Below are positions 3,610-27,606 of a DNA stretch of 64,000 bases, in pieces. The notes below the pieces were generated by a model, which had not been told where the DNA came from, ran no database searches, and saw only the letters and a program-made list of their open reading frames with translations. A program made the translations under genes and the position numbers. The stretch is from a virus. Lineage: Duplodnaviria; Caudoviricetes. The stretch is taken from IMG/VR virus record IMGVR_UViG_3300037067_016777, positions 192,001 through 256,000 of that record. One strand, 5' to 3'. Positions within the stretch are counted from its first letter, which is position 1; each line of letters starts with the position of its first letter.

Positions 3610-5408
3610 ATCCGCACCCACACGATTTATATTTAGTTGGGCCTAATGGCGATACAATACATATACGCAAGGGGCGTCGTGTAAGATTGCCAGATTTTTT
3701 TGATCGCTACGCTAATAAAGACGGAAAAGGATATTTAGTTAATGTGGATCAAATACCATCAGTACCACAGAAACGAGAAATCAAAACATCTCGACAAGCA
3801 GTTAGACCGGTTCAATTAAACAAACGCATAACAAAAGAAGTAAAACGGCAAATAGTAGGCCGTGTGAGAAGAAACGTTGATCTTGTTAGTTCTAAATCAT
3901 TCTCAAAGAGCGAGTTTGCAATTAGCGATGGTATTGGTATTGGGATTTTGACATATAATAGGTCAGAATCGTTGCATCGGTTAATAAGCTCTATTGTTAA
4001 GTACACAGATACATGCCGCACCACTATCTTTATTAGCGATGATGGTAGTACAGATCCAAACCAATTATCATACTTATCTGAGCTTGAATTACGTGGTGAT
4101 ATTGTAGTGCTTAGAAACAATCAGCAATTGGGAGTCGCTGGCAATAGCAATCGTTTGATGCGATGTTTGTCGAGATTCCCTAAGAAGATCTTACTAAACG
4201 ACGATGTTGAGATATTGAATAGTGGGTGGGAGCATTTTTATTTTCTTGCGATGCAGAGGACTGGTTTTCATCATTTTTGTTATCGACAACCTGGTGTGTA
4301 TGGCGCTGCTAAGGGTGTTAGTACTAATATCAATAATATAACCCTAAATGTCGTAGATAGCAAACCACACGGTGCTGTTATGGCATTCGATCATATTGCT
4401 TTTTCAAAAGTTGGTTATTTTGATGAACAATTTGGTCAATATGGCGTAGAGCATGTCGATTGGTCTGCTAGATTATCAGATAGTAGACTGCAACAACCAG
4501 GATTTTTTGATGTTGACGGATCTAGCTCTTACTTTTTAGTACATCCAGAACATTCATCTGTTGAAAATAGAGTTGAAAAATTTAAACATGCTAAATCAGT
4601 TTTGAGTGCTATTGGTGTTAGGCCGTCTTATGTGAGTGCTAGCGATGCAACTGTTGTTCCGCGTATTTCTTGCGTCATACCTTTCAGGGAAATCGATAGA
4701 AAAGGTTCGATAATTACCGTACTTAATAGTATTAGAGCACAACGATTTCCAGATATTGAAATCGTAATGGTTGAGGAAGATACTGTTTCTAAAATAGCTG
4801 ATGCAGAATGCGATCCTGCAAGGCATATTTTTATTGCTGGTCTTCCAGGTGCTGCATTTAATAAGAGCAAGGCTTGGAATGCTGGGGTTGCAGCTTGTAG
4901 CTGCGATATGCTTGTATTACACGATGCTGATACGTTGGCACCAAGTTGTTATTTTAAATCAGTGGCAAATGAATTGAGCGAGGTTGAATCTTGTCATCTT
5001 TGTAAGCAGATTTTTTATATTGGCTCGACAGAAACGCATAATATCAACGCTACTGGAACTATCGATCGCCCTAGATATGAGCATATGGTCGATTATTTTG
5101 AGGGTGGATCTATCGCATGTCGTAAAAAGGCTTATTGGAAAGTAGGTGGTTTTGTTGAAGAATTTGTTGGCTATGGTGTTGAAGATTGCGACTTTTATTT
5201 TAGGATATCTAAGGGAACTACTTGGAGAGAAAATCGCCATTTCGATTTATTGCATCTGCACCATGGCAGGGTTGAGAATTGGACGATGTATCACCAAAAA
5301 AACAAAGAGATAGGCGCTAAATTATCAGCACTATCCCTTGGTGATAGAATAGGAAGGCAGCGGCTGTTATTGACACAAAGTGGTAGAGGCCATTGTTTAG
5401 GTGAATAA
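3582..5408 (+). CDS. glycosyltransferase with two GT2 (GT-A) domains
   Basis: IGILTYNR...ISDDGS...LLNDDVE...GYFDEQFGQYGVEHVD and ISCVIPFR...LHDAD...GGFVEEFVGYGVEDCDF. Confidence 0.85.
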   Translation: MEAAVPEYLNPHPHDLYLVGPNGDTIHIRKGRRVRLPDFFDRYANKDGKGYLVNVDQIPSVPQKREIKTSRQAVRPVQLNKRITKEVKRQIVGRVRRNVDLVSSKSFSKSEFAISDGIGIGILTYNRSESLHRLISSIVKYTDTCRTTIFISDDGSTDPNQLSYLSELELRGDIVVLRNNQQLGVAGNSNRLMRCLSRFPKKILLNDDVEILNSGWEHFYFLAMQRTGFHHFCYRQPGVYGAAKGVSTNINNITLNVVDSKPHGAVMAFDHIAFSKVGYFDEQFGQYGVEHVDWSARLSDSRLQQPGFFDVDGSSSYFLVHPEHSSVENRVEKFKHAKSVLSAIGVRPSYVSASDATVVPRISCVIPFREIDRKGSIITVLNSIRAQRFPDIEIVMVEEDTVSKIADAECDPARHIFIAGLPGAAFNKSKAWNAGVAACSCDMLVLHDADTLAPSCYFKSVANELSEVESCHLCKQIFYIGSTETHNINATGTIDRPRYEHMVDYFEGGSIACRKKAYWKVGGFVEEFVGYGVEDCDFYFRISKGTTWRENRHFDLLHLHHGRVENWTMYHQKNKEIGAKLSALSLGDRIGRQRLLLTQSGRGHCLGE

Positions 5409-6371
5409 ATGCGAGTTTTATTTTGTAATCCGCCTGGCGGTGCCTTCACATTCATCACACAGGGTATGATTAATGCCTTACGTGATATTGGCTGTGCTGC
5501 CGAGCGTTGGGATGGTAAACGCGAAACTTGGGATCTATTTTCACCCGATGTTTATGTGGGATGCACAGGGCATCGGCAAAATCCGCCAAATACTCATCAG
5601 TGTAAAGTCGCTATCCATGTTAACCCGTATGGGCCGACAAAAATCGATCCGAACATCAATGAATCTCAAGGTGCTATCGATTGGGTAAAGTCGATAAAGC
5701 CAGATGCTGTTTTTGGATATGGGCATGAGTCTGACCGCCATTACTGGTCTTTTTGGGATAAAAATGGCATCCTGTGGGTTCCTATGGCGACTGCTGGCGA
5801 CGTTACAATATTTAATGTCGCTAATGGAGAGCATAGCAAGTATGATATTGGGTATGTTGGCGGGCGTTGGCCGTATAAGGCTAAGGACATAGATGCTTAC
5901 TTGTTTCCGGTTTTACGAGACACAACAATATCACACATGGTTCGTGGCTGGGGAACGTGGCCTGACAATTTATGCGGCGGGCCGATAACTGACAACGAGG
6001 TTCCGATATTATTAGCGAGCTGTAGGATAGCGCCATGTATTAGCGAACCACATACACTGGTCTATGGTATTGATCTTCCTGAGCGAGTGTTCAAATCTGC
6101 CCTAAGTGGTGCGGTTGTAATACACGATCCTGTCCCTAAATTAGATAGATACCTACCGCATATCATAATTGCCAGTAATCCAAAAGTGTTTCACTATGAG
6201 ATCAAAGGATTGCTGAAAGACCCTAGTTGGCTTCCTAAAATAGCACAACAACAACGCGATGATGTTTTGGAGGCGCACACTTATCATCACAGAATGGCAA
6301 CATTGATGTCGGCAATGGGTTTCAATGATACGGCATCTGCTTTATTATCAGCGGTATCGAGATTTAAATGA
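5409..6371 (+). CDS. GT-B glycosyltransferase (CgeB/Glyco_trans_1_2-like)
   Basis: YDIGYVGG, ERVFKSALSG, HTYHHRM C-terminal motifs. Confidence 0.7.
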   Translation: MRVLFCNPPGGAFTFITQGMINALRDIGCAAERWDGKRETWDLFSPDVYVGCTGHRQNPPNTHQCKVAIHVNPYGPTKIDPNINESQGAIDWVKSIKPDAVFGYGHESDRHYWSFWDKNGILWVPMATAGDVTIFNVANGEHSKYDIGYVGGRWPYKAKDIDAYLFPVLRDTTISHMVRGWGTWPDNLCGGPITDNEVPILLASCRIAPCISEPHTLVYGIDLPERVFKSALSGAVVIHDPVPKLDRYLPHIIIASNPKVFHYEIKGLLKDPSWLPKIAQQQRDDVLEAHTYHHRMATLMSAMGFNDTASALLSAVSRFK

Positions 6372-9475: not shown

Positions 9476-10030
9476 ATGGATCTACGTGACTTATCTAAAT
9501 CGATGGTGTTATTCGAGAATCGCCATAAAATTATTGACTCTCTTGATAGTATATTGCAGCAGATTGGTGTTCCGGCCGATCTGATAGGAGGAGTAGCGTT
9601 AGGCTCGTATAATTATACTAGGAACACTGAAGATATCGACATACTAATTGATAGATCTGATTACGATAAAGTAGCGAATGTAATAATCAATAACGGTGGT
9701 AGTAGTTTGGGTAAGAATAATAAGTTCTATTTATCTGGCTATACTGTCCAAATCTGTTATAGTGGTCTTAAGGTTCGGCATACTACATTCAAGAAACCAT
9801 CTAACGCTGAACCTGGGTTGAAGGTAATAGGCTTACCACAATTGCTATTGATGAAGATTGAAGCCGGCATTAGTCAATTCAGACATCGTGCAGATTTTAT
9901 AGAGCTAGTTAAGAGGAATAACATTTCATTGCAATATTTAGAGGATCATGTTTTTGGCTCATTAGATAAGATGGCAAGAGCCCAAGCAATTGAATTATGG
10001 AAAAGGGCACAAAGCGAACTTGATGAATGA
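9476..10030 (+). CDS. Pol-beta-superfamily nucleotidyltransferase (AbiEii/MenT-like motif)
   Basis: LIGGVALGSYNYTRNTEDIDILID = GG..A....R.T.D.D motif. Confidence 0.75.
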   Translation: MDLRDLSKSMVLFENRHKIIDSLDSILQQIGVPADLIGGVALGSYNYTRNTEDIDILIDRSDYDKVANVIINNGGSSLGKNNKFYLSGYTVQICYSGLKVRHTTFKKPSNAEPGLKVIGLPQLLLMKIEAGISQFRHRADFIELVKRNNISLQYLEDHVFGSLDKMARAQAIELWKRAQSELDE

Positions 10031-10033
10031 TAT

Positions 10034-10105
10034 GCGGTCTTAGTGTAGTGGTAACACATCAAGCTACCAGCTTGATAACGGGAGTTCGATCCTCGCCAGG
10101 CCGCT
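10034..10105 (+). tRNA. tRNA-Gly, anticodon ACC, no encoded CCA
   Basis: Acceptor GCGGTCT/AGGCCGC, D-stem GTGT/ACAC, anticodon stem TCAAG/CTTGA with loop CTACCAG, TTCGA T-loop, U73 discriminator; one bulged G in T-stem. Confidence 0.85.
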
Positions 10106-11710
10106 TTAATTAATCTGTTTTATAAACCTAATAACTGGCATACCGTTTATTTTAATTAAACCAGCCGATTCGGCATATTCTTTTTCTGACATTCTTATTC
10201 GTTTCGCCTGATCCCACACAGTTTTCTTGTGATATCTGTGGCCATTGGCGTCGATATACCAATAGCTCGGTTTTGTTCGACCATCAAGAATCCATCCTGC
10301 AGCCTTGTATATAACTCCACTATGATTTGCTCCAACGTCTGCAAAAGAAATAAGACATTTGATGTTGTTTGGAATTAGATTGACAGAATGGGCTAAAAAC
10401 CAAGATGCGAAATTCTTCTTGTGGTAGCTTGGATGTATGCAAAATCTATCCAATTCTAATATTGATGTTGTTGGCAATTTTAATCGGTCCGCCGATTGCT
10501 TTCTTGTTACCGAATTGAAGCTAGTGCAGGCTATTAGCAAGTCGCCAACAAACGCACCTATTTTTAGTCCGCCTCTACTTTTTGATAGATAATGGTACTG
10601 ATTTAGGAAGGTGTTTGACTCTTCGGATTGTATTAGTCTGATTTCGACATTGTTAAAGTCAAAAATTTCTTGTTTTGGCTCGATGCTAAGAATCTTAGAT
10701 ATACGATCGCGAATGCAATTAATACCATAAAACTCATATTCATATATATAATGTAATTCATATTCTTTAGACAAATGTCTTTCCCAATAAGTGTGTTTTT
10801 GCTTATCTCGCAACTGTCTTTCTGGTCTCGAATGCCAGTAACTTCCTTGACACTCAATAAGTATTCTGCGGCCATTATATTCAAAGCCAATATCAAAAGT
10901 CCAAGGACCAAGTGCAATCTGTGTAGCATTGATATTATAGACATCCTTCAATATTGAAATAATAATTGTTTCTAATATTGAAGTTTTCGGTTGCTTTAAC
11001 TTGGCTATCGCCTGCTTTGACTGATACGAAGAGTTAGACCAAAGTTTTTTAGATGACTCAGATATTTTTTGGCGATATTCTTCATTTTCCCAAATCTTTT
11101 TCGATCGCTCTGATTGTTGAAAAGCGACGACTGGATCTTTAAACGCTAGTTTTATTGCATTAGATGTTTTTATGCGATATTGGCGATCTGCCCATAGCGC
11201 TTTAGTTCGTACTATATTGGCATTTTTAACTTCTGGCTTATTTAGTGCTTTCTTGACTGCAGCGGTATGTCGTTTCTTTATTTCTTCGTCCGTTCTACAT
11301 CTAGACAATGTTTCAACTGCTTTATTATGATCGTTTTCCCTTAACATCCTTTTCTTTTGAGACATAGACTGTTTTTTGCGATATTCTTCAGATTGCATAA
11401 TATAATTGCATTTTTCTCTGAAGAGTTTATTGCTATGTAGCTGTTGTGATGCGATTTGCATATTTTTAATAACTGACGGCTTTTTGCAAGACTTCTGAAT
11501 AGCAGCAGTTGTGCGCTGCCTGAACTCACTGTTCTGCCATTTTAATTTACACCCCTCAGATGGTGTTCTTGTCTGTATATTGAATTTTTTAAGCCATTTG
11601 CCTATACACCTGTTGCCGACACTGCATATTTCGGCTATCTCATTAATACTGAACATTTTTTGTTCGTAGTGTTCAGACAGCCAACCACGGTCCTGGTATA
11701 ATTTAGCCAT
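10106..11710 (-). CDS. homing-endonuclease-like protein: HTH + helical repeats + Vsr/DUF559-like nuclease + C-terminal Mom-like GNAT domain
   Basis: FDIG...IECQGSYWH...RDKQK nuclease motif; ELDRFC...ISFAD...SGVIYKAAGW resembles Mu Mom. Confidence 0.7.
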   Translation of the reverse strand: MAKLYQDRGWLSEHYEQKMFSINEIAEICSVGNRCIGKWLKKFNIQTRTPSEGCKLKWQNSEFRQRTTAAIQKSCKKPSVIKNMQIASQQLHSNKLFREKCNYIMQSEEYRKKQSMSQKKRMLRENDHNKAVETLSRCRTDEEIKKRHTAAVKKALNKPEVKNANIVRTKALWADRQYRIKTSNAIKLAFKDPVVAFQQSERSKKIWENEEYRQKISESSKKLWSNSSYQSKQAIAKLKQPKTSILETIIISILKDVYNINATQIALGPWTFDIGFEYNGRRILIECQGSYWHSRPERQLRDKQKHTYWERHLSKEYELHYIYEYEFYGINCIRDRISKILSIEPKQEIFDFNNVEIRLIQSEESNTFLNQYHYLSKSRGGLKIGAFVGDLLIACTSFNSVTRKQSADRLKLPTTSILELDRFCIHPSYHKKNFASWFLAHSVNLIPNNIKCLISFADVGANHSGVIYKAAGWILDGRTKPSYWYIDANGHRYHKKTVWDQAKRIRMSEKEYAESAGLIKINGMPVIRFIKQIN

Positions 11711-11732
11711 ACAAATATATTTGGGTGTTTGG

Positions 11733-11741
11733 TGCTATAAT
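11733..11741 (+). promoter_or_regulatory. candidate extended -10 promoter upstream of neck gene
   Basis: TGCTATAAT in the intergenic region. Confidence 0.35.
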
Positions 11742-11847
11742 GAATTGTTTAGTTTATTTACCTTTTGAGCTAAAAGCGGACGTAATGAAAAGATATGCAT
11801 CGCTGTGTTTGTGTGTTCGATGAAACGGTAAAAGAGGATTTGATGTT

Positions 11848-12555
11848 ATGGCTATTATCGGACCGAACGATTTGCCGGTGGTTTTGAAGCTGAACTCAGA
11901 TCCAATGAAGGCTTACTGTTTAGCTCAACTCGGCCACCCGGCAGTTGCCGTTGAAATCGAGGAAGCCCAATTTGAGATAGCATTGCGCGTTACGTGCGAT
12001 TTTATAGCCGGATATTTCCCAAGAGAACAAAAACTAAAACTATTTTATACTGAACCGTTGGTTGCAACATACCCAATGCCAGACGATGCTTATTGGATCC
12101 AAGAGGTCCAGTGGGATCCTGTCACGACTAGGATAGATGATGTGTTTGGAGCTGAGAGTTTCCTCTTTTGTGTTGCTGACAATCTTAAGATTCTTGATAA
12201 AGACAATAGATTGCAGCCTGTTTCAGATTGGAAGACGCATTGGAAAGCTAAAACTCCATTTGGTCGCCGAACGCTAAAGATTGTTAAGAGGAAGATCGAT
12301 AGAACAATGCCGAAAAGGCGATTATTCTATGGTAATGGAATGATAGAAGCTACAACTAGTCATGTGGTTAAAATTGGCGGTAAGTGGCGTGAATTCGGTG
12401 AAGTAAATATTGGCGACCGTGTGCACGGGGTCAAAGATATGTTTGGGATACAGAATGTCGAGTGTTTTGAATCAACAGATGCGATCTCAATCAGAGCAAA
12501 TGGTGCTGGATGCTATTTTGGTTGCACCGAAGGCGAGCCGATCGTTATACACTAG
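11848..12555 (+). CDS. neck protein (T4 gp13-like) N-terminal fragment fused to a Hint/intein domain
   Basis: YCLAQLGHPAVAVEIEEAQF is the gp13-type N-terminus; residue 108 onward CVADNLKIL...ATTSH...IGDRV...PIVIH-stop is a Hint domain. Confidence 0.8.
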   Translation: MAIIGPNDLPVVLKLNSDPMKAYCLAQLGHPAVAVEIEEAQFEIALRVTCDFIAGYFPREQKLKLFYTEPLVATYPMPDDAYWIQEVQWDPVTTRIDDVFGAESFLFCVADNLKILDKDNRLQPVSDWKTHWKAKTPFGRRTLKIVKRKIDRTMPKRRLFYGNGMIEATTSHVVKIGGKWREFGEVNIGDRVHGVKDMFGIQNVECFESTDAISIRANGAGCYFGCTEGEPIVIH

Positions 12556-13573
12556 ACATAAAGATTCCGCTGAGTTTGATCCAGTTAAATTCACTCCTAA
12601 AACAATCCATAATAAGAAATCAATAGACATCGATCGTCTTATAGATTTCTTCAAATCCGACCACACTCTTGGCGATTGTGCTATAGAGTTTAGATGCAGT
12701 ACTGCTACTATCAAGCGAAGATTAAGGGTTGCTGGTGTAGACACCTCGATCTATAACCATAGTCAGATCGCTGTCGACCGTTCTAAAAAAGTTCGTGCTG
12801 TCGTTCTGCCGCCAGACGAAGAGATTCGCCATATGCTGGTCGACCTAAATTTAGATACCAAAACTGTCGCCGAAGAGTTTGGTGTCCACTTCAATACCAT
12901 AAGGAACATATCTAGGCGACTTGGTATAGAGAAGAATAGGAAAGATGTGGCAAAATCGATGAGTGTTAGACACTTAAAGATGCATGGTTATAGACATCCA
13001 GCACAACGTCCGGACGTTTTAGCCAAAACGAGGAGATCCAGTGGTAGAGTAAAGTATAGCGATATTAACGGCCGCACTTTTTTGTTCCGTTCACTGCATG
13101 AGCTTGGATATGCGTTGCTGCTAGATAAACGTGGTGCGGAATGGCAATATGAAGAGATGCATGTGCGTTATATCGATATGTTGACGGGAAAGCAGCGGAT
13201 TTACGTTATCGATTTTACTGTGGAATCTAATGGGCTGGTTGAGTGGATTGAGGTAAAACCGAACAACAAGATGATACCGGACGACAAAAGAATATATGCC
13301 AGTAGGAGAGCAGAAGATGCTGGTGTCGTTTATCGCGGATTAGTCGAGGAAGAGAGGCTAGAACTATGGGAGCTGTTGAAATCTGGTTACCGTCAAGAAT
13401 TTATACAATTTATGTTCCTCGCACCTAATCGCAACGCAAAACAGATAAGTTATTGGTTTAGTAGTAGTAAAGATGCTACTGAATTCAAGCTTGATGGATG
13501 GCGTAGACATAATATGCGCGATTATGGAACAGCACTACACACAGTGGTTTTCAGGCGTATTGAACAATTATGA
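12410..13573 (+). CDS. HTH-containing TnsA-N-like PD-(D/E)XK endonuclease (homing-endonuclease candidate); true start uncertain
   Basis: Two HTH-like segments; FRSLHE...WQYEE...YVIDF...WIEVKP. Confidence 0.7.
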   Translation: MATVCTGSKICLGYRMSSVLNQQMRSQSEQMVLDAILVAPKASRSLYTRHKDSAEFDPVKFTPKTIHNKKSIDIDRLIDFFKSDHTLGDCAIEFRCSTATIKRRLRVAGVDTSIYNHSQIAVDRSKKVRAVVLPPDEEIRHMLVDLNLDTKTVAEEFGVHFNTIRNISRRLGIEKNRKDVAKSMSVRHLKMHGYRHPAQRPDVLAKTRRSSGRVKYSDINGRTFLFRSLHELGYALLLDKRGAEWQYEEMHVRYIDMLTGKQRIYVIDFTVESNGLVEWIEVKPNNKMIPDDKRIYASRRAEDAGVVYRGLVEEERLELWELLKSGYRQEFIQFMFLAPNRNAKQISYWFSSSKDATEFKLDGWRRHNMRDYGTALHTVVFRRIEQL

Positions 13574-14586
13574 TTGACAGAACACTTAAACAGTTTTTTA
13601 CACATGATTACGATTTACTTCTACCAATTCTGGTCTCTTATCCGATAAGAGAGCGGCTAGTTATTGATCCATTTGCTGGTGAGCAACATTTATTGCGGTT
13701 AGTAGATTGCGATAAGATTGCAGTTGATGTTGATGCATCTGTAAATCCAGACATTGTAGCTGACTCATTTAACGAGTTGCCAAAGTTTGAATCGTGTGCG
13801 GTTATAACAAACCCGCCATACGCTCATTGGCACATTTTGCAGCGCGAAAATCAGAGACTAGCGGAAGCTGTGATGCTCGCCGGATATGTTGATTTATATG
13901 AATATAGTATTAGGCGGGTGATCGATCAGTTAGGATTTTGCCCGATCTATGCAATCTTGCCAGAGAATTTTATTGCGTCTAGGACTACCAGACTAAGGCG
14001 TGAGTTGTATAAGCATATCAAAGTAGTTCAGATTCATACACGCTCGTTATGTGACGATACAGAACAGCCTACTGTTTTTGTAGTATTGACGCCGGAGGAG
14101 ATTGATGACACCGATTTGTGGATAGATGATAAATTTACAGCCAAGATTTTAATAACGGCAGACGGATTACAGCCGCGATTAGAGGCAATCGGTGACTATG
14201 TTGACTTTGGTATGAAACCTTGGCAAACAGAGGAACAACGCAATACTTCTATATTACTTAAGGCAACTGATGGTGGTTCTGAGAACAACCGTATTAGGCT
14301 GATGACAGTAGCGGAACAATTTCCGGGTCTACGTCATTTCCATAACAAAATTAGCGATAGAGCCTATATTCAAATAGTACCAAAGATAGAATTATCTGAT
14401 AGCCAAATTGAATTACTAAAAATGGCTTTTAATAGGTGGGTAGATAAGTGGAGGAGCGATACTTTTGGACTCGGCCTGACTTCATTTAGGAATAACTCTA
14501 ATGGATTCAGAAGGAAGAGACTAGATTTCAAATTGGCAAGATTAGTGCTAAATAACTTGATCGATAAGCTTCTGCCTCATCGCTGA
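13570..14586 (+). CDS. N6-adenine DNA methyltransferase (gamma-type motif order)
   Basis: QFFT, IDPFAG (motif I), TNPPY (motif IV), DLY. Confidence 0.85.
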   Translation: MIDRTLKQFFTHDYDLLLPILVSYPIRERLVIDPFAGEQHLLRLVDCDKIAVDVDASVNPDIVADSFNELPKFESCAVITNPPYAHWHILQRENQRLAEAVMLAGYVDLYEYSIRRVIDQLGFCPIYAILPENFIASRTTRLRRELYKHIKVVQIHTRSLCDDTEQPTVFVVLTPEEIDDTDLWIDDKFTAKILITADGLQPRLEAIGDYVDFGMKPWQTEEQRNTSILLKATDGGSENNRIRLMTVAEQFPGLRHFHNKISDRAYIQIVPKIELSDSQIELLKMAFNRWVDKWRSDTFGLGLTSFRNNSNGFRRKRLDFKLARLVLNNLIDKLLPHR

Positions 14587-15303
14587 CTCGCTTAATTCAG
14601 CCAACCGCGAGACATAGGCGTTCTGACACTGGTTAGCAGCATCAATCTTTGCTTGATCGACCTCGATACCATCACAAATAAATATGAATTTATCGTTAGG
14701 TTGTGCTTGAGCACACTGTTGCATACTTGTTTTTCTATCGCCCTGGGAACCGCCGTCTGAATCGCCATAGCGAAGATATAACCAAATTCGTTTATTTCCG
14801 AATATAATCACACCATCAGGTTTGGTTGGCAGTCCGCTGTCTTTTGGCTCTCCGATTTTTAGTTGACAGAATGGCGGCGACATTTTCGAGAACACGTTCC
14901 TGACAGCACCTTTTTGGTCGCTCGATTTTTTGTTGCCATTTGTAGATCGTTGGCTGTTATAGACTACAGTTACAACATGATGTCTGATTTGATCATAGGA
15001 TAAATTCAGAGATTCAAACTCCTTGATGATTTCGTCGTCAGAGATCGAATATCCATCTTTGCGTGCTTTTTGACAACTTGTTCCGTTCGAGCCCAGAGCC
15101 ACGAGCATAATATCTATAGCTTGTATCTGCGCTCTCGGGTCTGTTCTGTACTTCCCAAAGTACAGCATTGATGCAATAGTGTTAATCATTTTGGTGTCAT
15201 AAATTATTCTATATCTGTACCCCGGAGGGAAACCGATCGAAGTTAGGTCGATTGCAACCGCGCTAGCTGCTAATGCTGTAGCCTTACGTGCTTTCTGTGC
15301 CAT
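14548..15303 (-). CDS. putative type II restriction endonuclease
   Basis: TKPDG...YGDSDGGSQ...FIFICDG; convergent and overlapping with the MTase. Confidence 0.5.
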   Translation of the reverse strand: MAQKARKATALAASAVAIDLTSIGFPPGYRYRIIYDTKMINTIASMLYFGKYRTDPRAQIQAIDIMLVALGSNGTSCQKARKDGYSISDDEIIKEFESLNLSYDQIRHHVVTVVYNSQRSTNGNKKSSDQKGAVRNVFSKMSPPFCQLKIGEPKDSGLPTKPDGVIIFGNKRIWLYLRYGDSDGGSQGDRKTSMQQCAQAQPNDKFIFICDGIEVDQAKIDAANQCQNAYVSRLAELSESAMRQKLIDQVI

Positions 15304-15330
15304 GAGATTAAAGATAGAATGGAGGTTGTT

Positions 15331-16023
15331 ATGAGACTAATAATTGTACCGTTTGTAAGCGTGTCGGCCTTCTCTGATATAAATACTGGCGATCTATTCC
15401 TATCAGAGAAGGCTTATGAAGAGAAACAGGAATCTCTTATAAGGCATGAGCTAGCACATTTATATTCGAATGACCCCGACCACGGCAAAATGTGGTCCGA
15501 GTTAGCAGAGCAACCACTACCAACGGTCGACTTGTTTAAGAAGATGCGAAAGCGGCTTGGCATTCCACAACATATTGCTGCGAATATAGGCAATATTTCA
15601 GGCGTTCAAAACATACTCACAGATTATTATCTTTTACAAGCTTATCGCCGTTCTTCACAACAAATTCTTGGGACTATCGGACACTGGGAAGTTTTAAATG
15701 AAGGTGGTAGTGGCCCAACAAACCAGCTGATTCGATTATATCCAACACCAAAGGGCGCATTTCCGGTTGTGGTTGTTTATTATCCAACAATTACACATTT
15801 CAGAAGTCCCCAAGCGCGTATGCTGGCTTCCGAAATGCTGTTGGCTGAAACGAAAGTGATGGTCGGTGCTGCACGTAGAAAAATCGCTGGTATACCTATG
15901 CCAGACGGTGGTAGCCTAGCACTAGACGGCGAGGCATTAGTCGCAGAAGGAAAAGAAGAGAAAGCTGCCATCATAGAAAAGGCTATACATTTGGGAGAGC
16001 CTATGGGTTTTGTGAAAGCATGA
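15331..16023 (+). CDS. SprT-like HExxH metalloprotease domain fused to neck protein (gp13-like) C-terminal fragment
   Basis: GGAGG RBS; IRHELAHL...DHGKMW; then NIGNISG...IRLYPTP...GAARRKIAGIPMPDGGSLALDGEALVAEGKEEK (gp13-type C-terminus). Confidence 0.8.
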   Translation: MRLIIVPFVSVSAFSDINTGDLFLSEKAYEEKQESLIRHELAHLYSNDPDHGKMWSELAEQPLPTVDLFKKMRKRLGIPQHIAANIGNISGVQNILTDYYLLQAYRRSSQQILGTIGHWEVLNEGGSGPTNQLIRLYPTPKGAFPVVVVYYPTITHFRSPQARMLASEMLLAETKVMVGAARRKIAGIPMPDGGSLALDGEALVAEGKEEKAAIIEKAIHLGEPMGFVKA

Positions 16024-16029
16024 TTAAAA

Positions 16030-16251
16030 ATGCAGTTTATTACTCGTCATCTCGATTATGTTAATATAATCTCATCTTATAAGTCAGGAGTTGCGATATC
16101 TGACTTAGCTGAGCGGCATAGTGTTGGAATCCACATTATTTATAAGGTGCTAGAGAACTGCTGCGAACGTCCTCAAGTTGACGACTTGTCTGCTGTTTCG
16201 GTTCCACAAGACCGGCCTATCCGCAAAGGTAAATGGAATAGAACGAGTTAA
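16030..16251 (+). CDS. small HTH protein (possible endonuclease-gene remnant)
   Basis: YKSGVAISDLAERHSVGIHIIYKVL. Confidence 0.4.
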   Translation: MQFITRHLDYVNIISSYKSGVAISDLAERHSVGIHIIYKVLENCCERPQVDDLSAVSVPQDRPIRKGKWNRTS

Positions 16252-16316
16252 GGATAGATTTCTTGTTCCTCTAAACGTCGACATATCAAAGATATCGTAG
16301 AAAGTTGAGGTATCAA

Positions 16317-16508
16317 ATGAGTCCATTAAATAAAGTGTGTTTTACGGTTTGTATGGTTTCGATTGTCATTAGTGCATTACTAGGTTTAGCTATGATATGG
16401 ACCGATATTGATCCAGAAATAACATCAAAGACATTTCTGACTTTACTTATCTTTTTTGTAAGCTCAGCGGCAATTAGCGGCGTCAATGCATTTTTCAAGA
16501 GCAAGTAA
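16317..16508 (+). CDS. small two-TM membrane protein
   Basis: Two hydrophobic segments; GAGG RBS. Confidence 0.55.
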   Translation: MSPLNKVCFTVCMVSIVISALLGLAMIWTDIDPEITSKTFLTLLIFFVSSAAISGVNAFFKSK

Positions 16509-16510
16509 TA

Positions 16511-16783
16511 ATGCATTTATCTCTTTTAAATGAGTCGGGTCCGCAATTCGATATTCTCGAAAAGGGTAAGATAAATCTCACGGACGATGAGCGCGAGCGA
16601 GTTATGATCGCTAAGGCTGTTTGGCATTTTGGTTCTAACGGTAAGCCGAGTCCAGCCATTAAGAAAGCGATAGTGCGTGGTAAGACTTATTACTATTGCA
16701 ATACGCACCGTTGTTATCAATCTGCGAAGACTTTAGATGGTGCTATAAAGAAATTCTTTGATGTAGTGGAGCCTTCAAGTTAA
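16511..16783 (+). CDS. hypothetical protein (possible internal head protein)
   Basis: MHLSLLNE N-terminus. Confidence 0.55.
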   Translation: MHLSLLNESGPQFDILEKGKINLTDDERERVMIAKAVWHFGSNGKPSPAIKKAIVRGKTYYYCNTHRCYQSAKTLDGAIKKFFDVVEPSS

Positions 16784-16792
16784 ATCTACACT

Positions 16793-17638
16793 ATGCGACT
16801 TCATTTGTTATCAGAAGGAATTGTGGCATCGGAACTTGGTGATGTCACTAAATTAAAGAATTCATTAGCTAATCAATTAATGATTGCTCTTGAGCGGTTA
16901 GGTTTTCGTAAACCTAATATGAAACCAGCTGAGAATCCGACTGATGATGCGATTGTCTATATAGAGGCTGGACAAAACGCACTGACTAGGGAATCTCAAA
17001 CGATAGTGGTTACGATAGAAGACGATGATAGTGTAAGAATACAAATCCCAAGCGATATTAGTAGATCTGGTAAGAAGAATCTGGCTGAAATTTTGGGAAT
17101 AGATGATTTCTTTATTACCGGGTCAGTCGGAGAAGCTATTGCCAGGTTAAAGGCTATTAAGCGTAAAGCGGATCATCTAATACAAAAAAGCGGTTTGCGT
17201 GGCTCGTTATCTTCAGGCCATATAGGAGAAAGTGAAGAACCACCAGCTGTCGACTATACGGTCGGCGAATTTCAGGTAAATTCAACTAAAAACGGTAGAT
17301 TCTTATCAAGCCAGCTAGAACGTTTTTTAAATGCTAAAATGCCGAATTTGATAGTTTTAAGGCAATCTGTATGGGAGCCTAGGGCGCAAACTGGTTGGCT
17401 ATCTTGCGCAACTGTAATATATATGTGTCGTGGCACAACAAGTTTAAAACAACAGCTTAAGGAATTATTTGCTCAAGAGGACTATTTTGATTTTATACCG
17501 ACGCGCTATAAGACGATCGGCATAGCGTCTACTGTAGAAGAATTTCTTGGTTTATATGGTCACTATGAATTAAGCCCTACATGGACAAATATTATTAATA
17601 ATATGGCTGATAAGTTTGAGGCAGGAATGGTTGATTGA
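16793..17638 (+). CDS. hypothetical protein (possible internal head protein)
   Basis: MRLHLLSE N-terminus. Confidence 0.6.
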   Translation: MRLHLLSEGIVASELGDVTKLKNSLANQLMIALERLGFRKPNMKPAENPTDDAIVYIEAGQNALTRESQTIVVTIEDDDSVRIQIPSDISRSGKKNLAEILGIDDFFITGSVGEAIARLKAIKRKADHLIQKSGLRGSLSSGHIGESEEPPAVDYTVGEFQVNSTKNGRFLSSQLERFLNAKMPNLIVLRQSVWEPRAQTGWLSCATVIYMCRGTTSLKQQLKELFAQEDYFDFIPTRYKTIGIASTVEEFLGLYGHYELSPTWTNIINNMADKFEAGMVD

Positions 17639-19193: not shown

Positions 19194-20066
19194 ATGGCTA
19201 TCCATGAATTTACGCCACACGTTTTAGAGCGAGAGAGAACCTCTAATCCTGTTCCTGGCCCAGAACGCAATCCGCATATTGAGCTATATCCAGTGGGTGT
19301 AGCGCAGAGCAGCGATGTTCAAGGTGGCCGCTCTAGCATTTATGGCGAGACACTCGGCAGCCAGCCAGAGTTTATTCAAGAGTTCCTGATGCCGGGTTTT
19401 CACGCTCTTGACGAAGCGATGAAAACATATTGGTCTGGAATTAGAATACCAACTAAAGATGCCTACAGGTTTATGAGGGTTAAGATAGCTGGTGGCGATA
19501 AGAGTATTCTGATATGGCGTGATCAATTAAAAGAAGGACGAGTAAAATTTCCTGTTGCCTCTATTAGTCGGATCAGCCATGAATTCAATCCACAGAAGTT
19601 TAGTACGCCTGTGTTAGCGATGGCTCGCAGATATACTAGCAGTCGCATGGATCGAGTTGCTTTAATAAGGCGGCCAGTGCCTTTTTTGGTGAAATATACG
19701 CTCACAATATGGGCGTCTTATAAAGGTGAAGCCGATCACGCATTAGAACAGATTCTGCCACGATTCAATCCGTTAGCTGAATTCGTAATGTGTGATCAAC
19801 ACTTACGCGGTAGTGTACAGCTAAGATTTGAAGGGTCTGCCGACGCCAGCGAAAAGGAAGTTGGTTTTGATCAGAAAGCCAAAATACGATACGAATTTTC
19901 AATGACTGCTGAGGCTTGGCTGCCATTGCCAGAACTTATAGTTCCAACTATTCTTGGACACGCCACTGTGATTAAGGAATCTGCCACGAATGAATTATTA
20001 TCAATGGGACGAGGAGATACAACTAGACTGTTTTGTAAGCCTGACGTTGGTGGTTGGGATATTTGA
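19194..20066 (+). CDS. tail terminator / sheath stabiliser (T4 gp15-like)
   Basis: PVPFLVKYTLTIW...EQILPRFNP motif. Confidence 0.7.
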   Translation: MAIHEFTPHVLERERTSNPVPGPERNPHIELYPVGVAQSSDVQGGRSSIYGETLGSQPEFIQEFLMPGFHALDEAMKTYWSGIRIPTKDAYRFMRVKIAGGDKSILIWRDQLKEGRVKFPVASISRISHEFNPQKFSTPVLAMARRYTSSRMDRVALIRRPVPFLVKYTLTIWASYKGEADHALEQILPRFNPLAEFVMCDQHLRGSVQLRFEGSADASEKEVGFDQKAKIRYEFSMTAEAWLPLPELIVPTILGHATVIKESATNELLSMGRGDTTRLFCKPDVGGWDI

Positions 20067-26613: not shown

Positions 26614-27606
26614 ATGTCAGATCGCGTAGAAGAAGAAGTTCGTCTTACTAGTAGAGAAATCCAACAGCCGCAAGAAACTAAGATATTGACTGAAAAGCCA
26701 GTTTCCGAGCTATCTAAGTTGGTCGGTAATGCAACATCAGATATAGATATTGTTGATATTATTTCAAGAGCTTCGCCTGAGCAACTTATTCCATGGGAAG
26801 AGACGACTCTTCCTAGTAAGGGTTTATACTATGGTTGGTCGTCTGGTGTAGTATCTGTCAAGGCGTGGTCTGCAAAAGTCGATAAAATCTTAGCTACTGC
26901 GAGATTAGCACAGACTGGCCAATCAATTGACTATATGCTTCAAGAATGTTGCCGTTTCCCTGACGGTTTCGATATTCAAAATATGCTGGTTGGTGATCAG
27001 ATTTATTTATTATATTATCTTCGTGGCATTACACACGGTAATATTTATGAGTTTGCTTCAACCTGTCCAAACGAGCAATGCCAGCAAGCTGCTACTAATA
27101 CTGTTGATTTAAATGATCTTGTTTCTACTATTGTTTGGGCAGATGAATCATTGGGCAACGAGCCATTCAAGATTACATTGCCATATTTGAGCAAAACAAC
27201 GGAAAGAGAAATTACGGCATCGATTAGATTTCTGCGAGTACACGATGCTAACACTATCCAAAGAGCAAAAAAAGCGAAGAATATGTTAGTTGGTGGCTCA
27301 AGGGCTAAGATTAAGCCGCGAGAACGTGCTAGACAAATTGTAGATCATAGCCACGACGAAGTAGTACTAGACGATTTAGTGACACAAAATATCGAAACTG
27401 TAATTGTCGATATTATGGGTGTCAATGATAGATTTAAGATTAAAAATATTGTTAATAAAATGCACTCTACTGATATTGCTGTTATTAGAGAATGGTTATC
27501 TAATCATACTCCAAGTATTGAGACTACGATTGAGATACAATGCGCACATTGTAATGAATCTTATCGTACAATGCTACCAATTACAGAATCCTTTTTTCGT
27601 CCGTAG
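26614..27606 (+). CDS. baseplate hub assembly protein (T4 gp26-like)
   Basis: LPSKGLYY, LLYYLRGITHG, CPNEQC, CAHC...PITESFFRP. Confidence 0.7.
   Translation: MSDRVEEEVRLTSREIQQPQETKILTEKPVSELSKLVGNATSDIDIVDIISRASPEQLIPWEETTLPSKGLYYGWSSGVVSVKAWSAKVDKILATARLAQTGQSIDYMLQECCRFPDGFDIQNMLVGDQIYLLYYLRGITHGNIYEFASTCPNEQCQQAATNTVDLNDLVSTIVWADESLGNEPFKITLPYLSKTTEREITASIRFLRVHDANTIQRAKKAKNMLVGGSRAKIKPRERARQIVDHSHDEVVLDDLVTQNIETVIVDIMGVNDRFKIKNIVNKMHSTDIAVIREWLSNHTPSIETTIEIQCAHCNESYRTMLPITESFFRP

Follow-up and report, generated by a model that had tools for sequence, protein, structure and literature searches.

A phage neck gene fractured at a single peptide position by a mobile element with a Hint domain and a zincin leader

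The 64,000-nucleotide stretch of DNA analyzed here (the window) comprises bases 192001–256000 of the 269-kb linear IMG/VR virus record IMGVR_UViG_3300037067_016777 (Caudoviricetes), which is estimated to be 74% complete. Within it, a T4 gp13-type neck gene is interrupted exactly between the codons for Phe107 and Asn108. The first piece (ORF1) continues from the N-terminal half of the neck protein into an intein-type Hint domain, while the second (ORF2) places a small zincin domain, here termed the leader, in front of the C-terminal half. From the conservation of both appendages in related phages, we conclude that the insert is probably a mobile gene-fracturing element with two catalytic, self-removing tags, one on each half of the host protein.

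The position of the break is confirmed by intact relatives. Uninterrupted homologs of 253–260 residues read ...DDVFGAESFLF-NIGNISG... through it, and one of them (P0003) shows 98% identity to the N-half and 93% to the C-half. In the DNA of six intact alleles, window positions 11847–12168 correspond to locus positions 5000–5321, and 15583–16005 to 5322–5744; because 12168 is thus joined directly to 15583, the insert is exactly 12169–15582 (3414 bp), and its removal restores an in-frame protein of 253 residues. An earlier reading of the window made from the sequence alone had proposed a gp13-like neck gene in two pieces, an FLF/NIGN junction and this in-frame deletion product. The intact homologs bear out the first two at both protein and DNA levels, and the DNA of the six relatives the third; their alignment does not shift the junction to a Cys, Ser or Thr elsewhere. 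Split alleles, and almost all intact ones, have Asn at residue 108. The segment that contains the break is the best conserved of gp13, and AlphaFold2 (AF2) models put the break itself between two predicted helices.

ORF1 (11848–12555, 235 residues) consists of 107 neck residues and a 128-residue Hint domain ending IVIH-stop. ORF2 is open from 15319 to 16023, and its true start is likely the ATG at 15331, because a GGAGG (15321–15325) lies five bases upstream and homologs begin M-[KR]-I/L-x-I-x-P-F; this start yields a leader of 84 residues. Both pieces are therefore built as originally described, the second with its own GGAGG ribosome-binding site, an 84-residue HExxH domain and a gp13-type C-terminus. 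A search with the C-terminal 150 residues of ORF2 returned 311 proteins with PF26809 (Phage_T4_gp13), and precomputed matches to this family are recorded for ORF2 (P0001) and nearly all homologs; a Pfam scan of ORF1 and ORF2 themselves reported no PF26809. The C-half model matches T4 gp13 chains in Foldseek (9lu6_A and 9mkb; probability 1.0, E 0.02–0.2), with a modest VIA Z score of 6.4 over 69 residues. The isolated neck halves are poorly predicted, with predicted local distance difference test scores (pLDDT) of 40–55.

The Hint domain is, in contrast, confidently modeled (ORF1 residues 108–235, pLDDT 90–95 from a 58-sequence alignment). Its best structural match by Foldseek and VIA is BIL2 of Tetrahymena BUBL (VIA Z 17.1), followed by the gp41-1 intein (17.0), the Ssp DnaB mini-intein (16.8), the Mtu RecA intein (16.6), the C. 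thermocellum BIL domain (16.4) and Hedgehog (16.3). In these superpositions Cys108 coincides with residue 1 of the inteins, and the partners of His235 are residue 142 of BIL2 (the Asn of which is 143), 124 of gp41-1, 153 of Ssp DnaB and 439 of RecA, the penultimate His in each case. Since residues 108 and 235 map to these two positions, the domain is a whole splicing domain minus the terminal Asn, rather than an N-intein fragment. A profile of the family reaches Prp8 inteins at E 1.7e-4; Pfam (including PT-HINT and Intein_splicing), PHROG and NCBIfam give no match to ORF1.

The window copy has Cys1 (codon TGT), a block B T-x-x-H motif (TTSH, with His172; the family consensus is T-x-N-H), a GCYF resembling block F (with Cys222) and a final His. 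Cys or Ser at position 1, together with the block B Thr and His, is what Hint domains need for an N–S or N–O acyl shift, as in intein and Hedgehog chemistry. This part of the intein signature is present on a fold that scores Z 16–17 to many inteins; a C-terminal Asn (or Gln or Asp) for cyclization and a Cys, Ser or Thr as first C-extein residue are both absent. Canonical splicing is excluded by the missing terminal Asn and by the Asn at +1, and the earlier statement that canonical trans-splicing is inapplicable holds, given that the C-piece also has no C-intein. A C-intein hidden within the leader was considered and rejected, as the leader has no conserved His-Asn and the Hint domain on the first piece is already complete.

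Two Hint lineages with a mutual identity of 18–27% can be distinguished (C-x-S-x-E-F-K-I...G-E-P-I-L-I-H and [CS]-W-x-G-G-T...K-E-F-Y-L-V-H). P37, G39 and a GC[YF]Y motif are retained in both, as are the nucleophile, the T-x-N-H of block B and the final His; these last three and the Cys of GC[YF]Y are invariant or nearly so among 60 sequences scored. The residue after FLF is Cys in 49 of the rows counted and Ser in 11, and the C-termini read ...[LIVM]x-His-stop in all but one of approximately 60 proteins, the remaining one ending His-Gly. Five further Hint-bearing genes from IMG/VR have the same nucleophile position and His ending.

The leader of the C-piece is a minigluzincin/SprT-like domain, with an HExxH motif and a third zinc ligand on a minimal α/β zincin fold. 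In an alignment of 62 leaders (23–57% identity), only P11, the HExxH and a His seven residues later are invariant. Every leader abuts Asn108, mostly as ...G-I-x-x-x-I-A-A/N and, in the second lineage, as ...L-A-[LF]/N. The profile of these 62 sequences matches proabylysin (4jiu, E 6e-4), selecase/projannalysin (4qhj, 1.8e-3) and, more weakly, Wss1. Residues 1–90 of the ORF2 model (pLDDT 80–92) again retrieve 4jiu as the top Foldseek match (E 3e-3, probability 1.0; VIA Z 6.7 over 72 residues), and the model places a β-strand over residues 86–90, spanning the leader/neck junction. The SprT-like protease named in the sequence-only reading is borne out in its zincin fold and HExxH, but minigluzincin-like (proabylysin/selecase) is the better label, the Pfam SprT-like (PF10263) score of 13.2 bits lying below the family cutoff of 25.6; the relatives P0213 and P0217 score 17–20 bits.

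The two-tag architecture recurs widely. Family counts refer to the best 120 C-half homologs and the best 120 N-half homologs: at least 63 of the former carry a zincin leader and about 50 are intact, while 59 of the latter carry a Hint domain, so that the share of split alleles is similar in the two lists. Wherever both pieces could be read, or paired on one contig (the window, L002, L003, L006, L009, L010/L011, and the P0146/P0014 and P0139/P0027 contigs), Hint lineage and leader lineage always travel together. The design is thus found well beyond one locus, in two deeply diverged lineages that keep the catalytic residues. A leader-only profile run against 1.84 billion representative proteins gave nine matches below E 1e-10, all of them gp13 C-half leaders or fragments, and weaker matches to ordinary stand-alone SprT-like proteins. 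This leader-profile search, for which no matching Hint search was made, found no evidence of a Hint/zincin pair splitting other genes. From these sequences the module appears to be restricted to gp13 and not to be a general system; the architecture sought in other genomes was found in dozens of gp13 cases, but in no other split gene by leader profile.

Both neck halves and the Hint domain are under strong purifying selection. Relative to intact alleles, nonsynonymous divergence (dN) is 0.02–0.09 for the N-half and 0.06–0.09 for the C-half, with saturated synonymous divergence (dS), and the Hint domain compared with that of L027 gives dN 0.086, dS 1.3 and a ratio (omega) of 0.066. The IMG/VR scan returned five N-half+Hint genes (eight FLF-Cys matches, three of them chance) and approximately 45 intact genes. 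In the same scan no gp13 N-half stopping directly after FLF was found, the three pattern matches being chance occurrences outside gp13; the Cys108 codon, TGT, is one step from TGA.

In one phage (P0194/P0078), the 9 kb upstream of the C-half (L010) contain no N-half, and the 5 kb downstream of the N-half (L011) contain no called gp13 C-half. Its N-half+Hint gene is followed by a gene for a 568-residue DNA_pol3_alpha fragment, and the zincin+C-half gene is in a different neighborhood. As the halves are not adjacent, any reconstitution must act in trans, at the protein level. The 568-residue DNA_pol3_alpha gene may itself be a split dnaE.

We propose that a homing-endonuclease element fractures the essential neck gene between Phe107 and Asn108 and would bring its own protein-level repair kit. 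The N-piece would be made as an N-half–Hint fusion, in which the Hint domain performs an N–S (or N–O) acyl shift at Phe107–Cys/Ser108, turning Phe107 into an activated (thio)ester. The C-piece would be made as a leader–C-half fusion, from which the minigluzincin-like leader would cut itself off at ...Ala/Asn108, exposing the native α-amine. The neck halves would then fold together and the Asn108 amine would attack the Phe107 (thio)ester, an attack that would release the Hint domain and restore the native Phe–Asn peptide bond. Overall, this would amount to a two-enzyme trans-ligation.

That both tags are catalytically active and remove themselves is probable on the sequence evidence, since the Hint nucleophile, T-x-N-H and terminal His are kept in approximately 60 proteins and HExxH-x7-H is invariant in 62 leaders, as expected if the tags are active and not inert docking remnants. 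The invariant zincin site, together with the fact that all leaders stop at the native junction, suggests cleavage in cis at Ala/Asn108. Methionine aminopeptidase does not remove an initiator Met before Asn and could not expose Asn108, so that a dedicated protease makes sense. The AF2 strand at residues 86–90 fits cis-cleavage, as does proabylysin, for which the published account describes a C-terminal tail in the enzyme's own active-site cleft, its last residue contacting zinc (PMC5557861). A stop at codon 108 would give the same product as hydrolysis of the ester, yet the Hint domain is kept in two lineages and no stop-only allele was seen, which suggests that the ester is used productively. 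The best-fitting acceptor is the α-amine of Asn108, because the leader would expose exactly that amine. The terminal His of the Hint domain is invariant with no Asn present for it to assist, and the nearly invariant Cys of the block-F-like GC[YF]Y has no obvious role (inteins usually have His there, by our own reading of the alignment); either residue could serve the proposed aminolysis. BIL2 of BUBL, the Hint thioester of which is resolved by an amine to form isopeptide bonds to lysines (PMC8616854), offers by analogy a precedent for such capture.

Capture of the Hint-made (thio)ester by the Asn108 amine seems to us more likely than a non-covalent product with a nick. The complete sequence of events up to covalent ligation, all three chemical steps of which are inferred, falls somewhat short of an even chance in our judgment. 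More tentative again is the broader claim of a natural two-enzyme trans-ligation by direct aminolysis, without Cys, Ser or Thr, that houses a homing element in the most conserved segment of an essential virion gene. Of the two self-removing tags first envisaged for this locus, the conserved two-tag design with its catalytic residues stands, while the acyl shift, the leader cleavage and the choice between ligation and assembly keep the status of proposals.

Several points weigh against ligation. The +1 residue is not Cys, Ser or Thr, and without catalysis (thio)esters undergo aminolysis slowly; the ester formed by the 11 variants with Ser1 would, moreover, be a less reactive oxyester. A nick between two predicted helices is possibly tolerated, in which case non-covalent assembly could suffice, and the Hint domain could serve to hold the N-half for a time before being hydrolyzed off. 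That stop-only alleles are absent is based on the IMG/VR scan and on the proportions of the two homolog lists, 107-residue N-halves falling below the length filter of the large protein database, and the position of the leader cut, Ala/Asn108, is a prediction.

These points lead to the alternative we take most seriously, itself rather unlikely, in which both tags remove themselves and the product stays as two chains. The Phe107 (thio)ester would be hydrolyzed, the leader cut off, and halves 1–107 and 108–253 assembled non-covalently, Hint domain and leader serving mainly to hold or solubilize the halves or to time their release until the halves meet. This model draws on the same structural and conservation evidence as trans-ligation; the lack of a +1 nucleophile and the break between helices suit it, and the low pLDDT of the isolated halves fits the need of a partner or holder. 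It also has a parallel in Aeh1 NrdA-a/NrdA-b, homing-endonuclease-associated genes in pieces whose products work non-covalently with element-derived tails (PMC3045599). Against it, a change of TGT to TGA at codon 108 would yield an identical N-half without a 128-residue catalytic domain; instead, catalytically intact Hint domains persist in two deeply diverged lineages at an omega of about 0.07, with no stop-only allele seen, and the invariant terminal His and block-F Cys would be without a role in plain hydrolysis. It is improbable that the tags are simply retained, the Hint and zincin staying as docking or decoration modules, or the zincin acting as a virion protease on another substrate, in a neck that tolerates both. 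Extra domains on neck proteins are conceivable, but the catalytic residues, beyond the mere fold, are invariant in both domains, and two bulky appendages are hard to fit at a break in the most conserved segment of gp13. In the loci with DNA, Hint and leader types always occur together, but nothing shows contact between them.

Still less probable is transfer of the N-half by the Hint domain to some other nucleophile, such as a Lys of a neck, portal or tail protein or a small molecule, with the C-half associating separately. The Hedgehog Hint uses cholesterol, and BIL2, the best structural match, makes isopeptide bonds to lysines, so other acceptors have precedents. However, the residue to be activated, Phe107, is the very residue found before Asn108 in intact alleles, and it is the Asn108 amine that the leader would expose, making Asn108 the parsimonious acceptor; intact alleles, moreover, function without any such cross-link. 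The least credible explanation, with a very small probability, is that the split is an artifact, a decaying pseudogene or a lesion repaired at the nucleic-acid level (misassembly, a dead gene beside an intact copy, RNA splicing or DNA excision). In its favor, the record is incomplete and a second copy could lie elsewhere. An independently built Logan contig of 4747 bp, the run of which may be the source sample, nevertheless spans 11055–15801 without a difference, a contig from a different study bridges the N-half/Hint junction, and the same architecture occurs in dozens of independent assemblies, so misassembly is very unlikely. The concern that an intact neck gene exists elsewhere while these halves decay finds no support either: no second copy of the N-half, Hint domain or leader is present in the 269-kb record, at its estimated completeness of 74%, and the halves show the low dN given above. 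An Rfam scan of 11000–17000 found no intron (two sub-threshold chance matches only), and the cargo includes no recombinase. No contig joining 12168 to 15583 was seen among the sequencing-run contigs aligned to the window, which does not prove its absence. The separated P0194/P0078 halves, with no N-half within 9 kb upstream of the C-half, likewise speak against repair of DNA or RNA. Amine capture by Asn108 accordingly remains the reading we prefer among these.

The element itself (Table 1) carries cargo between its two tags. Its TnsA-like endonuclease is likely the homing enzyme. The endonuclease frame is open from 12410, 146 nt inside the 3′ end of the Hint coding sequence, with a probable start at ATG 12500; a similar overlap recurs in L006 (46 nt) and L027 (approximately 50 nt), which suggests that the homing enzyme is translationally coupled to the Hint domain. 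In L006 and L009, a homologous 333-residue helix-turn-helix (HTH)/TnsA-like endonuclease is the only cargo and either overlaps its two neighbors or lies directly against them; for the L009 copy the Tn7_TnsA-like score is 27.1 bits (cutoff 26.5). The minimal element thus consists of Hint domain, 333-residue endonuclease and leader. Cargo is otherwise variable: a 484-residue HTH/TnsA-like gene lies on the opposite strand in L002, six genes are present in L003, a DUF723 protein is encoded on one contig, and in L037 merely 1 kb or so separates the two pieces. An endonuclease, a methyltransferase and a putative restriction enzyme had been read between the pieces of the window gene. The first two are supported, but the third stays a lead only: the 251-residue ORF has Atlas feature scores of 0.93–0.95 to DpnII-like clusters and structural TM values of 0.53–0.64, with no Pfam, PHROG or NCBIfam match. 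Together, 13570–15303 resembles a convergent restriction-modification pair, which the minimal elements of L006 and L009 do not have.

Table 1. Features of the fractured neck locus and of downstream virion genes (window coordinates)
Feature	Position	Strand	Basis
N-half, T4 gp13-like neck protein, residues 1–107, ending ...DVFGAESFLF	11848–12168	+	Homology; DNA collinear with intact alleles L012–L025
Whole inserted element, 3414 bp (Hint, endonuclease, methyltransferase, restriction-enzyme candidate, zincin leader)	12169–15582	+	Absent from six intact alleles
Complete Hint (intein-type) domain, 128 residues, in frame after Phe107, ends IVIH-TAG	12169–12555	+	AF2, VIA, profile, conservation
Free-standing HTH + TnsA-like PD-(D/E)xK endonuclease, 357 residues	12500–13573	+	Pfam Tn7_TnsA-like_N, E 4.9e-5, below cutoff
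DNA methyltransferase, extra cargo	13570–14586	+	phrog_18657 "DNA methyltransferase", E 9.5e-16; Pfam Eco57I weak
251-residue ORF, candidate DpnII/BanI-like type II restriction endonuclease, extra cargo	14548–15303	−	Atlas features and structure; lead only
Zincin leader (minigluzincin/SprT-like), 84 residues, HELAH-x7-H, ends ...GIPQHIAA directly before Asn108	15331–15582	+	Profile, Foldseek, VIA, conservation
C-half, gp13-like neck protein, 146 residues, from NIGNISGVQ...	15583–16023	+	PF26809, homology, DNA collinear with intact alleles
gp15-like sheath stabilizer	19194–20066		
Sheath, 952 residues	20677–23535		
Baseplate hub	26614–27606		

The element is clearly mobile, and is gained and lost among close relatives. 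When 117 C-halves are placed on a quick maximum-likelihood tree, split alleles are scattered throughout the intact ones and well-supported branches force at least eight changes; one intact and one split protein have C-halves that are identical over the 150 residues compared. This distribution is that of a homing element aimed at the most conserved segment of a gene. On the P0027 contig, genes at 9735–10748 include a second HTH/TnsA-like endonuclease immediately 3′ of the split neck gene, and several homing-type nucleases may thus cluster around gp13. The gp13 core also hosts canonical mini-inteins, in P0147 at ...YRKF/SQK... and in P0210 at NIGNI/SGVQ, the latter protein additionally carrying a zincin leader; with such inteins at two other core sites, gp13 is a hot spot for Hint-type elements. 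The P0147 intein was considered as a canonical intein at the site of the break itself and rejected, lying 24 residues downstream.

The surrounding region is made up of T4-type virion genes, with the gp15-like sheath stabilizer, tail sheath and baseplate hub all downstream of the neck gene. The nearest cultured relatives are only about 31–41% identical, and this over no more than the last third to half of the sheath, at its C-terminus. A tblastn search of 50,697 phage records gave no match for ORF1 and a single weak match for ORF2, to an uncultured 595-kb phage; groundwater and landfill metagenomes contain near-identical DNA. A second insertion (10013–11846) lies directly 5′ of the neck gene and is missing in the intact-allele relatives L012–L025, the DNA of which resumes at 11847. 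It includes a tRNA-Gly (anticodon ACC, 10034–10105) and a minus-strand gene for a 534-residue protein combining an HTH, a PD-(D/E)xK nuclease (REase_MTES_1575-like) and a Mom-like domain (Pfam Mom, E 6e-20); similar Mom-fusion genes are found immediately 5′ of the N-half in L002 and L006. Just 3′ of the neck gene, among small ORFs at 16154–16238, contigs from two runs (X1 and X4) have 10 bases in place of 83, a strain-level indel. In L009 (1–1426), a gene for a 984-residue glycosyltransferase 5′ of the neck gene has faint Intein_splicing and LAGLIDADG matches and may hold a canonical intein.

For a selfish element to reside in an essential gene, the product of that gene has to be restored. To our knowledge, this is achieved by RNA splicing, by protein splicing with contiguous or split inteins, or through non-covalent tails. 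The locus described here, with at least 60 relatives, represents a fourth design, in which two unrelated, putatively self-processing enzymes are both kept under selection. If the halves are ligated, this would be a traceless ligation at a non-Cys junction, of use to protein engineers; the intein and native chemical ligation methods we know of require Cys, Ser or Thr. If they stay separate, the system would be a new case of scarless fragment maturation and would offer a candidate natural substrate for the poorly understood minigluzincin-type proteases. In either case the system is small, with two ORFs of approximately 230 residues. Full-text literature searches found no published description of Hint and zincin tags by which two genes would yield a single protein. 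The fracture of genes by homing elements that bear a Hint domain is of a kind already described; ligation, if demonstrated, would be categorically new.

The closest comparison is with the fractured genes of Dassa et al. (2009; PMC2677866), in which a conserved phage gene is likewise broken in frame, with Hint-derived sequence at the break, a free-standing endonuclease gene between the pieces, regulatory signals within the insert, and a patchy, mobile-looking distribution in related phages. Those genes carry complementary N- and C-intein halves. Here, in contrast, the intein-type domain is unsplit, its whole fold lying on the N-piece without a terminal Asn, and the C-piece has neither C-intein nor +1 Cys, Ser or Thr; its leader has a zincin fold with no intein block. 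The host also differs, being a virion structural protein rather than a DNA-metabolism enzyme, and the endonuclease is TnsA-like, not Vsr-like or GIY-YIG. Canonical mini-inteins of the gp13 family (P0147 and P0210) occupy the same conserved core. Unlike the Hint domain at the break, they are contiguous, have a C-terminal Asn and a +1 Ser, lie 24 and 5 residues downstream, respectively, and can splice conventionally.

The fold, the N-terminal Cys/Ser nucleophile, the block B His and the lack of a +1 splice nucleophile are shared with BIL domains, BIL2 of BUBL and Hedgehog. In contrast to these, the present Hint domain forms part of a homing element and caps the extreme C-terminus of one piece of a divided structural gene. 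Its presumed acceptor would be provided by another gene product once a protease has processed that product, and the domain's last residue is the penultimate His, while Asn143 is retained in BIL2. The leader resembles the minigluzincins (proabylysin 4jiu, projannalysin and selecase MJ1213) and SprT/Wss1/Spartan in being a minimal zincin of approximately 85–100 residues with HExxH and a downstream His. The geometry reported for proabylysin, with the tail in its own cleft touching zinc, is that expected for cis-cleavage at the end of the leader. Unlike the minigluzincins, it is part of a mobile element and forms an N-terminal leader, of predicted activity, on a fragment of a phage neck protein. 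Aeh1 nrdA, split by mobE (Crona et al., 2011; PMC3045599), is also an essential phage gene divided by an endonuclease insertion, and there element-derived tails on both fragments are needed for function. However, the nrdA tails are short interaction peptides without catalytic motifs, whereas in the split neck gene the two appendages are enzyme domains, conserved and positioned precisely at the residues of the native junction.

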